Source: Escherichia coli
GTDB lineage: Bacteria; Pseudomonadota; Gammaproteobacteria; Enterobacterales; Enterobacteriaceae
Assembly: GCF_048403405.1 (NCBI RefSeq)
Contig: NZ_CP183129.1
Length of the DNA: 64,000 nucleotides
Strand: one strand, 5' to 3'
Below the pieces are notes generated by a model, which did no database searches, was not told the DNA's origin, and saw nothing but the letters and a program-made list of their open reading frames with translations. Both the position numbers and the translations under genes were made by a program. This document shows positions 27,996 to 31,484 of the stretch, piece by piece (position 1 is the stretch's first letter; each line of letters begins with the position of its first letter).

Positions 27996-29138
27996 ATGAC
28001 AAATAAACACCCATCATTGTTTTCTCCTTTTATGCTGACAGAAAAAATAAAGCTACGTAATCGTATCGTTATGGCCCCTATGACGACCTGGTCAGCGAAT
28101 CCTGATGGAACCATCTCTGAGCAAGAACTCGAATTTTATAAACGCCGCTCACAAAATGTTGGTTTAGTAATAACAGGATGTACCTATGTCACGCCAAGCG
28201 GCATTGGGTTTACTCATGAATTTGCCGCGTATGACGACCGTTTCATTAACAGCCTTGAAAAGTTAGCAGCGGCAGCCAAAAGTGGCGGTGCTCCGGCTAT
28301 TTTGCAGATTTTCCACGCCGGTAATAAAGCCATCCCGGAGCTTGTGCCAAATAACGATGTTATTAGTGCCAGCGCATCAAGCGTAAAATCTGGTGACTTT
28401 ATGAAGAGAGTGGTACAAAGCAGGGAAATGACTGAAAACGAAATTCAGGAAACCATTAGAGCATTCGGAGATGTCACAAAAAGGGCGATTAAAGCAGGTT
28501 TTGATGGCGTTGAACTTCATGGTGCGCACGGATTCCTTCTGCAGAATTTCTTCTCCCCTCTATTTAACCAGCGTAATGACCGATGGGGAGGAGATCTTGA
28601 AGGACGTATGCGCTTCCCGCTGGCCGTATTACAGGAAGTAAAAAATGTAGTCTATGAATATGCGACAAAGCGCTTTGCTATCGGTTACAGAATATCTCCT
28701 GAAGAATCTGTAACAGGGGGGCTGCGGATAGAGGATACTTATAAACTCCTTGATCGACTCATTTCATCCGGTATTTCGTATATACATACCTCGCTGGTCA
28801 GTATTAACGATAGCTACCCTGTTGAGTCGCCAAATGGCCCCCGAACTATTGAATTGATTTTAAATCATATTGCAGGCAGAGTGCCGGTAATCGCTGCAGG
28901 TAAAATACGCACACCGTCTCAGGCTCAAGAAGCAATTTCCGCTGGCCTGCCACTTGTTGCGATCGGTAAAGGGCTGGTGATAAATCCAGAATGGGTGACT
29001 TTAGCTGAATCAGGTAGAAGCCATGAAATTCAAACAACCCTTAATCCACAACTTGTTCCTGAATTAACCATTCCGGATAAACTATGGGATCAAATTCAGG
29101 CATCGAAAGGAACTGGCTGGTTTCCGTTAATGGATTAA
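27996..29138 (+). CDS. NADH:flavin oxidoreductase, Old Yellow Enzyme family (ene-reductase)
   Basis: 380-aa ORF, GAGG RBS; OYE signatures (PMTTWSA, HGAHGFLLQNFFSP, GYRISPEE). Confidence 0.8.
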   Translation: MTNKHPSLFSPFMLTEKIKLRNRIVMAPMTTWSANPDGTISEQELEFYKRRSQNVGLVITGCTYVTPSGIGFTHEFAAYDDRFINSLEKLAAAAKSGGAPAILQIFHAGNKAIPELVPNNDVISASASSVKSGDFMKRVVQSREMTENEIQETIRAFGDVTKRAIKAGFDGVELHGAHGFLLQNFFSPLFNQRNDRWGGDLEGRMRFPLAVLQEVKNVVYEYATKRFAIGYRISPEESVTGGLRIEDTYKLLDRLISSGISYIHTSLVSINDSYPVESPNGPRTIELILNHIAGRVPVIAAGKIRTPSQAQEAISAGLPLVAIGKGLVINPEWVTLAESGRSHEIQTTLNPQLVPELTIPDKLWDQIQASKGTGWFPLMD

Positions 29139-29610
29139 ATATCTATTACTCTCCCGAGAGTAAAACTATTAAACCAATGAGTAACCGATACAGCCTCGCA
29201 AATTCTTTCAGATAATTAACTCGTCACTGCGGCACGTTCTCTCGTAAGGCGTGCCTGCTGTGTAATCCAGTATGTATCCGGCATAGTTGACGGTTTAATA
29301 GAACTCAATTCCTCTCCCAGGTCACCAACAACGATATCTTGTATAACACCCCAGGAGATACGACATTATGATGAGATGCGATATGCTCCTCAGCGCCAAT
29401 CAACGCCCGGGCTGGGCCAGTTTTGAGATCAGACTCATTCCCGGACTGACTTCAGGCGACATATATCAATGACGTTGGGGCAATAAAAGATAGCCGATGT
29501 AATACATCTATTCAAATTTGTGATACATGTCAAAAAATTGGTTGACCAAACTCGTTATTTATATAAGGGCACTTACGAAGTGCACTCTTTTTTAAAGCGA
29601 GGAAGTACCA

Positions 29611-29712
29611 ATGAAAGAGAATAAAGTACAACAAATCAGTCATAAACTGATTAATATCGTTGTTTTTGTCGCAATTGTAGAATACGCCTATTTATTTCTC
29701 CATTTCTATTAA
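29611..29712 (+). CDS. 33-aa hydrophobic small protein (YkgR-like)
   Basis: ATG 29611 preceded by GAGGAAG; encodes MKENKVQQISHKLINIVVFVAIVEYAYLFLHFY; below the 60-aa ORF track cutoff. Confidence 0.4.
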   Translation: MKENKVQQISHKLINIVVFVAIVEYAYLFLHFY

Positions 29713-30037
29713 TAACGGCAATAAACTGTTCACTTCAGTGATATTAAAAAATATGCATCCTCTCCCTTTTTTGTAAGTAATTATTATATCCGTGGGAGAG
29801 GAATACACGCTGTCCGGCAATCAAACTGCGATAAATCATCGGCCAGTAAAATGGAGATAGCCTCCATTCTCGAAAAATTCATACTCTCAGCGAAACCATC
29901 ACTCATCAAGGCGTTTATGGGAGCGTCGCCAATGGCTGCTAACAATGCCAGACTTCCCCGTTACCGAAATTCCACATACCACAAATGGTCACAGGGATTG
30001 GGTGTTGAAATGATCCGGATGAGCATGTATCTTTATG

Positions 30038-30058
30038 GTTATGTTATAACATAACAGG
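30038..30058 (+). promoter_or_regulatory. Zur box overlapping the ykgM promoter
   Basis: Perfect palindrome ATGTTATAACAT at 30041-30052, within 25 bp of the ykgM start; matches the GAAATGTTATAnTATAACATTTC-type Zur operator. Confidence 0.5.
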
Positions 30059-30063
30059 TAAAA

Positions 30064-30330
30064 ATGATGAAGCCCAATATCCATCCTGAGTATCGTACTG
30101 TGGTGTTCCATGACACCAGTGTTGATGAGTACTTTAAAATCGGCTCGACTATCAAAACAGACCGTGAGATTGAGCTGGATGGCGTAACGTATCCGTACGT
30201 GACAATTGATGTCTCTTCTAAATCGCACCCGTTCTATACAGGGAAGCTGAGAACAGTGGCATCAGAAGGAAATGTTGCACGATTCACCCAACGTTTTGGT
30301 CGTTTTGTTAGCACGAAAAAGGGGGCATGA
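30064..30330 (+). CDS. ykgM: ribosomal protein L31 paralog (zinc-independent) YkgM
   Basis: Translation [24 protein letters not shown]...; lacks the CxxC zinc ribbon; start 30064 or 30067. Confidence 0.9.
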
Positions 30331-30470
30331 TGAAAGTCCTTAACTCTCTGCGTACCGCAAAAGAACGCCATCCAGACTGTCAGATTGTGAAGCGAAAAGG
30401 ACGGCTATATGTGATTTGTAAATCTAATCCACGTTTTAAGGCCGTTCAGGGTCGTAAGAAAAAACGTTGA
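30330..30470 (+). CDS. ykgO: ribosomal protein L36 paralog YkgO
   Basis: 46-aa [49 protein letters not shown]; ATGA overlap with ykgM stop. Confidence 0.85.
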
Positions 30471-30498
30471 TTCAAAATTCGACGAATTAACGATATTT

Positions 30499-30558
30499 GT
30501 CTGATTAATAATCAGACCGGATTAATGTTGGTGTATTTATTACACCAGCATTAATTTT
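30499..30558 (+). terminator. tandem hairpins ending the ykgM-ykgO operon
   Basis: GTCTGATT-aat-AATCAGAC (30499-30517), then 15/16 inverted repeat ATTAATGTTGGTGTA...TTACACCAGCATTAAT (30521-30554) followed by TTTT. Confidence 0.5.
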
Positions 30559-31484
30559 CCTGGGGATGTATCTTCCTGTTCATTTAAGGTCAACTGCCTG
30601 ACGTTTCTCTCCGAATATTCCATTATATTAATGTTGACTTGTTGACCAGGTGCGCCCTGTATGCTGGCATCAACTCTCTTTTAGACTGAACACGCCACTC
30701 AGTTTCCTCCCTTTGCGACGCAGCCTGCATTTACACTCAAACGGTTAAGATGATAAATGTGGTAAATCTGTTGGTACTGACATAAAAACGTTTACGCCAC
30801 AGGAACGGCCTGATCCACCGGTAACCCCATCGCCGACGTTCGAGTGCCAGTTAGAGTAACGCGCACAGATGACTGAATGCAGTGCCCTGGCAAAGAGGCC
30901 ATCGTTCCTGTGACAACTGGCAGTCTTCGTTTAACTTCACTTAATTTGGCTCTTAGGGGGCTTACCGGACAGATGACGTACTTACACCTGTTTAATTTTT
31001 CATCACTTATTGGGATGAACACCCATAACCATTTTGTGCGGCATGTTAATCCATTAAAACACCTTACTGATTGGCAAATCATCTTTAATTATGACTCATG
31101 ATAGTTTTATATTCTATTTCTTATCATTTAAACTTGTTTTTTTACTAGTCCATTACACAACACATTAAGACTATTCCTAACACCTCAGGGCAAAGTTCCT
31201 GGCTAATATAAAATGCAAGTAAGAATTGAACGTTATATTGCCAATAACCTTATGAAACTGAATGTCTTTTTCTTCTTATCAAAAAAGCAATATTTTCATT
31301 TTTTGTAAATATTGACTTAACCATGGAATTCCTTTTCTGTTCACATATTGACACTCATCAGGAAAAAAACATAAATTTAAACCTAATCGAAATAATTAAA
31401 ACTTAATCTCGTTTAATCTATATTGATATGTGCTACGTATCTTATTTACTTCCGATTTACTAAAGAAACTGAATGTACCTGTAA

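Follow-up and report, generated by a model that had tools for sequence, protein, structure and literature searches.

The window, as we call the whole stretch of 64,000 nucleotides of Escherichia coli DNA that was analysed, carries on its plus strand an intact NADH-dependent flavin oxidoreductase gene (27996..29138; Pfam PF00724, 263 bits), then two small reading frames, and then ykgM (30067..30330, type B L31) and ykgO (30330..30470, type B L36), the positions of the oxidoreductase, ykgM and ykgO genes being those of the RefSeq annotation. In a genome that is 100% identical the gene order is oxidoreductase, ykgR, ykgM, ykgO. An initial annotation had drawn attention to the two small frames, and we found both in the sequence with the translations that it gave. 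The first, ORF1, encodes 34 aa (MMRCDMLLSANQRPGWASFEIRLIPGLTSGDIYQ) on the plus strand and occupies 29368..29472 including the stop; the frame is as originally described, while its coordinates had been set one base too high. The second, ORF2, lies on the same strand at 29611..29712 (33 aa plus stop), and the two are 140 bp apart. Each is preceded by a Shine-Dalgarno-like motif read from the plus-strand sequence. CAGGAGA (29352..29358) stands 9 nt ahead of the ATG of ORF1, with the end of its AGGAG core 10 nt ahead, and GAGGAAG (29599..29605) stands 5 nt before the ATG of ORF2.

Reading further downstream, we found a promoter-like TTGAAA-17-TATCTT ahead of ykgM at 30005-30033 and, downstream of that, a perfect 18-bp palindrome, GTTATGTTATAACATAAC, at 30038-30055. 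We take this palindrome to be the known Zur operator (Zur box) of ykgMO. The hexamer pair TTGAAA / TATCTT is listed for ykgMO (PMC3946193). When 29140-30070 was compared with other genomes, the match in two O157:H7 records (H28 and H29) ended at query position 769, near window position 29908, which indicates that the ykgR-ykgM spacer is interrupted or rearranged in them.

The oxidoreductase gene is patchily distributed. In a set of 100,044 species representatives, close matches to it were confined to Escherichia sp. E1V33 (96% identical) and Citrobacter sp. Cu233 (82%), and the next matches, about 55% identical, are in Bacillota and Paraburkholderia. We located E1V33 through this protein, using its 96% amino-acid identity. 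At fourfold sites the oxidoreductase gene differs from E1V33 by 16.5%, far less than ykgR does at synonymous sites, and this points to transfer or recombination; the oxidoreductase gene is probably the outlier in divergence for one of these reasons. The other genomes that we compared carry the YkgR V6I allele and are named E. fergusonii by their sources; we refer to them as E. fergusonii-type. In these genomes the oxidoreductase upstream of ykgR is reduced to fragments, and what comes after ykgR is either a phage-type integrase or proB/proA-like genes, in place of ykgM-ykgO (L012-L019). The proB/proA-like naming is our own reading of the Pfam families AA_kinase/PUA and Aldedh. In E1V33 an integrase-like ORF follows ykgR. 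The locus was also present on E. coli-like contigs in two assemblies labelled Collinsella sp. (MAG) and Terrisporobacter petrolearius (L020 and L047), which are probably contamination.

ORF2 is ykgR, an already known and experimentally studied gene, described as that of a small inner-membrane protein. The initial annotation had likened it to YkgR, a single-transmembrane small membrane protein, and that assignment was borne out. The ORF2 protein is identical to RefSeq WP_000662258.1, annotated as ykgR in more than 5000 RefSeq E. coli genomes, and it scored 78.1 bits against the NCBIfam equivalog NF041474.1 (cutoff 40) over its full length (residues 1-33 of 33). The 931-bp stretch 29140..30070 matched 5089 of 5426 complete E. 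coli genomes, and there ORF2 is labelled 'small membrane protein YkgR'. PF28062:YkgR is precomputed for the V6I allele; ORF2 had no match in our local Pfam copy, which lacks a YkgR model. The hydropathy of the protein agrees with this assignment. A short, charged N-terminus (MKENKVQQISHK), with three Lys and one Glu in the first 12 residues, precedes a single hydrophobic C-terminal segment from L13 to Y33, and the best 19-aa Kyte-Doolittle window (residues 13-31) averages 2.01. ORF2 therefore has what is expected of YkgR, namely a segment of transmembrane length after a short polar N-terminus in about 33 residues. It is residue for residue the same protein as YkgR of K-12 (b4671; NF041474; PF28062), with the same Shine-Dalgarno motif and in the same place upstream of ykgM-ykgO. 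The gene itself shows no difference from K-12; the difference lies upstream, where K-12 has only the ykgP stub next to eaeH/IS3 and the window has an intact oxidoreductase.

Published work on this sequence in K-12 has detected YkgR by Western blot, has shown by cross-linking that SRP recognises it once the ribosome has released it, and has found that its membrane insertion goes via SRP (PMC7549839). The intramembrane protease RseP cleaves YkgR in vivo and in vitro (PMC10470546), and a review describes ykgR as induced in stationary phase (PMC10502375).

The reading frame of ykgR is conserved in related genomes. By the Nei-Gojobori method omega was 0.07 against E1V33 (dN 0.038, dS 0.52) and 0.04 against the E. 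fergusonii type (dN 0.013, dS 0.34), and within E. coli the nucleotide diversity (pi) of the gene is 0.007. E. fergusonii-type genomes and E1V33 share the GAGGAA core of its Shine-Dalgarno motif; in E1V33 the last position of the motif is C. These ratios point to strong purifying selection on the ykgR frame across Escherichia. We also observed ykgR pseudogenes in two O157:H7-type genomes (L008 and L010), in which a T5 to T4 deletion at the equivalent of window position 29661-29665 truncates the protein after residue 22; this exact frameshift allele of the O157:H7 type occurs in 297 of 5068 E. coli records.

Directly upstream of ykgR lies a plus-strand, non-coding block of 116 nt (29495..29610) that stands out by its conservation. 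Its identity to E1V33 is 92%, compared with 61-69% for the adjacent spacer and a difference of 37.5% at the synonymous sites of ykgR, and its pi within E. coli is 0.012 against 0.036 in the spacer. On these comparisons the block is far more conserved than neutral sequence would be. We infer that it is the promoter and leader of ykgR, which would then be expressed from its own constrained control region. Several elements can be read in it. A candidate CRP-like site, TGTGAtacatgTCAAA, lies at 29519..29534; it was found with the pattern TGTGA-N6-TCACA at no more than one mismatch and reads TGTGA-N6-TCAAA, and it is one of two such matches in the window where 2.0 are expected by chance. E. fergusonii-type genomes and E1V33 both retain its two half-sites. 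TTGACC is found at 29542-29547. Just ahead of the ykgR Shine-Dalgarno motif, a small hairpin, GCACTTACGAAGTGC, followed by a T-run (29569..29593, plus strand) was flagged as terminator-like. Its centroid fold of -6.2 kcal/mol is no better than that of shuffled sequences; the E1V33 version, GCGCTTACGAAGCGC, has one compensatory change from A-T to G-C. Two other readings of the block were considered and set aside. A GTG-started frame (29520..29624) was rejected as an upstream ORF: E1V33 differs in it by five missense and two synonymous changes, and E. fergusonii-type genomes have a frameshifting 1-nt insertion there. Sigma-54 and sigma-E promoters, read by hand, had the wrong spacing.

The case for ORF1 began with its size and its ribosome-binding motif, and we asked how much these weigh. 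Across the six frames of the window there are 160 ATG-started ORFs of 30-45 codons, and length by itself therefore means nothing. AGGAG, GGAGG or GAGGA 4-18 nt upstream of the start is found for only two of the 160, ORF1 and ykgR, so the initial choice of these two was not arbitrary. Three 5-mers over 11 positions should nevertheless occur by chance at about 3% of random starts. Since by our own estimate about five motif-bearing short ORFs are then expected per window, one spurious case is unremarkable.

We next turn to ORF1 within E. coli. RefSeq/PGAP places no annotation under it in 40 genomes sampled across the identity range, and automatic gene callers have deposited it as a 'hypothetical protein' in many GenBank genomes. 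Among such deposits are 39-aa calls from E. coli and Shigella (for example AGC85742.1 and AEZ38997.1), whose first 26 codons are common to ORF1, and also the 34-aa form of the window (for example SYR51078.1). The 39-aa calls are unreviewed, automatic and dropped by RefSeq PGAP, and their C-terminus is unlike that of ORF1 in the window. The latter difference is explained by a single base: relative to K-12 the window lacks one A (CCCGG-ACTG), so its C-terminus departs from that of the 39-codon K-12 frame, and the three other differences from K-12 are all missense.

To see how frequent these forms are, we searched about 5070 E. coli records for the exact alleles. The window frame, with no extra A, was present in 392 records and the 39-codon frame with the A in 3072, while a TGA at codon 4 was present in 107, and in 894 the first ATG is ACG, leaving a 38-codon frame from the second ATG. 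Both of the TGA strains examined (L004 and L007) carry the window-type frame, so an intact 34-codon ORF1 occurs in fewer than 392 records; the 38-39-codon version is open in about three quarters of the records. Strain NRZ14408 has CAGAAGA in place of CAGGAGA. Across ten E. coli genomes we counted 12 SNP sites in ORF1: two synonymous, eight missense, one nonsense (TGC to TGA at codon 4) and one start loss (ATG to ACG), in addition to the frameshifting indel. Random change would be synonymous at a fraction of 0.21, and 2 of 12 were seen. The pi of ORF1 is 0.036, the same as that of the spacer before it and five times that of ykgR.

Comparison with other Escherichia gave the same picture. In E. 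fergusonii-type genomes L012, L013 and L015 the alignment joins the oxidoreductase stop region directly to ATAAAAGATGG, and a 338-bp segment holding all of ORF1 (29145..29482, its boundary ambiguous by the dinucleotide AT) is missing. The spacer is single-copy in each genome and the segment is not bounded by terminal inverted repeats, and an insertion-element origin was rejected. The plasmid records that matched the spacer were all either F-primes with E. coli chromosomal DNA or mislabelled chromosomes, and give no link to a mobile element. E1V33 keeps the spacer, with ATGATG changed to CTGAAG so that both ATGs of ORF1 are gone and with CAGGAGA changed to CGAAAGC so that its Shine-Dalgarno motif is gone as well; there is a 1-nt indel in the ORF1 region and there are two insertions further upstream in the spacer. 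Identity to E1V33 is 61% in the spacer before ORF1 and 69% in ORF1, against 90% in the ykgR coding sequence. In the stretch where the frame is shared (codons 8-39) omega was 0.76 (dN 0.35, dS 0.455; Nei-Gojobori). Next to the 16.5% divergence at oxidoreductase fourfold sites, the 31-39% divergence of the spacer could be taken for evolution faster than neutral; we rejected this, as the spacer fits the ykgR pS of 0.375. The spacer has thus diverged at the ykgR synonymous rate. ORF1 is evolving neutrally. The initial annotation had proposed frame conservation and the balance of synonymous and non-synonymous change as checks on both ORFs, and for ORF1 neither came out in favour of a gene. The start codon, the ribosome-binding site and the frame that a small-protein gene should keep are not conserved, and there is no excess of synonymous change (2 of 12 SNPs; omega 0.76). 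These comparisons indicate that no selection maintains an ORF1 product.

We then asked whether ribosome-profiling literature bears on ORF1. Tetracycline ribosome profiling (TetRP; PMC4909307 supplement) lists more than 300 start sites in intergenic DNA, and neither the peptide nor the coordinates of ORF1 are among them; ORF1 was also not found in the accessible part of the Stringer 2021 tables. These negatives are weak, since the start coordinates of ykgR are also missing from that part of the Stringer tables and the TetRP files (PMC4909307 supplement) have no entry under its gene name; the locus may have been silent under those profiling conditions. ORF1 resembles the validated E. coli small proteins (Hemm, Weaver, Stringer and Storz-type sets) in its size class and in an AGGAG-type site before the ATG, and differs from them in having no frame conservation, no purifying selection and no entry in the two supplements, as far as these were available.

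Searches for relatives of ORF1 were likewise negative. It belongs to no Pfam or NCBIfam family, and the joined six-frame translation of 29139..29497 matched no protein at E <= 0.1 among 5.8 billion, in a database whose search results apparently leave out very short entries. With the 39-aa form as query, phmmer found 11 matches among 1.84 billion representatives. Four are E. coli variants of ORF1 itself, of 34-58 aa and themselves frameshift products. The other seven comprise six proteins of 752-1871 aa and one of 166 aa (P0042), nearly all matching in 3-7 stretches, and the two that we inspected (P0034 and P0042) are tandem repeats. We rejected the long-protein matches as artefacts of summed repeats: in the best of them (P0034) no single stretch exceeds 27 bits, a score without significance in a library of this size. 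No homologue of ORF1 outside E. coli emerged from the family and protein searches, and Citrobacter sp. Cu233 has nothing in common with the window downstream of its oxidoreductase.

Folding of the RNA was examined over the same interval. A search for Rfam families at E <= 1 found none in the ORF1 or ykgR interval; its sole match was folP RNA (20 bits, E = 0.33) at 30483-30584, downstream of ykgO. The fold of 29340-29480 was no better than shuffles (z = -0.44); in its predicted minimum-energy form the ORF1 Shine-Dalgarno motif pairs with CUCCU inside ORF1. A strong hairpin (29225-29262; -17.1 kcal/mol, z = -2.9) lies about 90 nt past the oxidoreductase stop and has no U-tract; it is retained in E1V33 with its bulge shifted. 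Downstream of ykgR, the fold of 29705-29830 (-28.7 kcal/mol, z = -2.9) contains a plus-strand stem-loop, (U)CCUCUCCC...GGGAGAGG(A), at 29758..29801, which E1V33 retains apart from one pair that has become G-U. The motif (A/C)CTCTCCC occurs three times on the plus strand and once inverted (29758-29801, 29148-29155, 29311-29318). The stem-loop past the end of ykgR is formed by it; E1V33 has not conserved the copies that lie upstream. In addition, 29308-29319 and 29793-29804 match each other perfectly in inverted orientation over 12 nt.

Our data suggest, with high confidence, that the interval holds one real and described gene, ykgR, and one chance ORF, ORF1. ORF1 would be a frame left open by chance in a neutral spacer of about 350 bp that separates the oxidoreductase gene from the control region of ykgR, and its AGGAG could permit incidental translation if read-through transcripts exist. 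What counts against chance is that ORF1 has a good AGGAG core at a usable spacing and is the only ORF of 30-45 codons besides ykgR so equipped. The same points would be expected of a very young small-protein gene that arose from the spacer, is restricted to E. coli and normally has 38-39 residues, the window carrying a variant frameshifted to 34. It also fits such a gene that 3072 records match the 39-codon frame exactly at the indel site and that 894 more have the 38-codon frame. However, the substitution spectrum of ORF1 is neutral, with nonsense (107), start-loss (894) and frameshift (392) alleles at 2-18% of about 5070 records, its diversity equals that of the spacer, and omega between species is 0.76. 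E1V33 lacks both the start codon and the Shine-Dalgarno motif, E. fergusonii-type genomes lack the segment, the TetRP start list does not include ORF1, and its Shine-Dalgarno motif is predicted to be paired within the ORF. We therefore give a young gene only a slim chance. It is highly improbable, too, that the 38-39-codon form is a translated E. coli-specific micro-protein early in de novo birth, with loss alleles segregating and the window strain frameshifted.

The initial annotation had offered instead that ORF1 might be left over from a deleted gene. Decay does occur at this locus in some lineages: E. fergusonii-type genomes retain oxidoreductase fragments, and K-12 has a true remnant in ykgP, a 3' stub of the NADH:flavin oxidoreductase gene that lies upstream of ORF1. 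A longer ancestral gene should have left some resemblance to a protein, but no frame of the spacer (29139..29497) matches any of the 5.8 billion at E <= 0.1, no Pfam or NCBIfam family is found, the only phmmer matches outside E. coli are tandem-repeat proteins with single stretches of 27 bits, and the sequence after the 82% identical oxidoreductase of Citrobacter sp. Cu233 shares nothing with it. We find this origin barely credible and do not retain it. Nor is it at all probable that the region acts as RNA, either as an element of the oxidoreductase 3' UTR or as a small RNA. Its position downstream of that gene on the same strand and the strong hairpin at 29225-29262 would suit such a role, but Rfam gives no family there, the fold across ORF1 is no better than shuffles, divergence equals the ykgR synonymous rate, and E. 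fergusonii-type genomes dispense with the segment. The reading that remains by far the most probable is that ORF1 is open by chance beside a real ykgR.

There is thus nothing new in the interval, ykgR being already known and ORF1, as we read it, chance. That ykgR was rediscovered from raw sequence matters little. ORF1 illustrates how a short ORF may be noise in spite of a good Shine-Dalgarno motif, and together the two form a clean internal control, a spurious 34-codon ORF and a real 33-codon gene for which both population and cross-species data are at hand. The constrained 116-nt block is a mildly useful by-product, and it could guide work on the regulation of ykgR in stationary phase.
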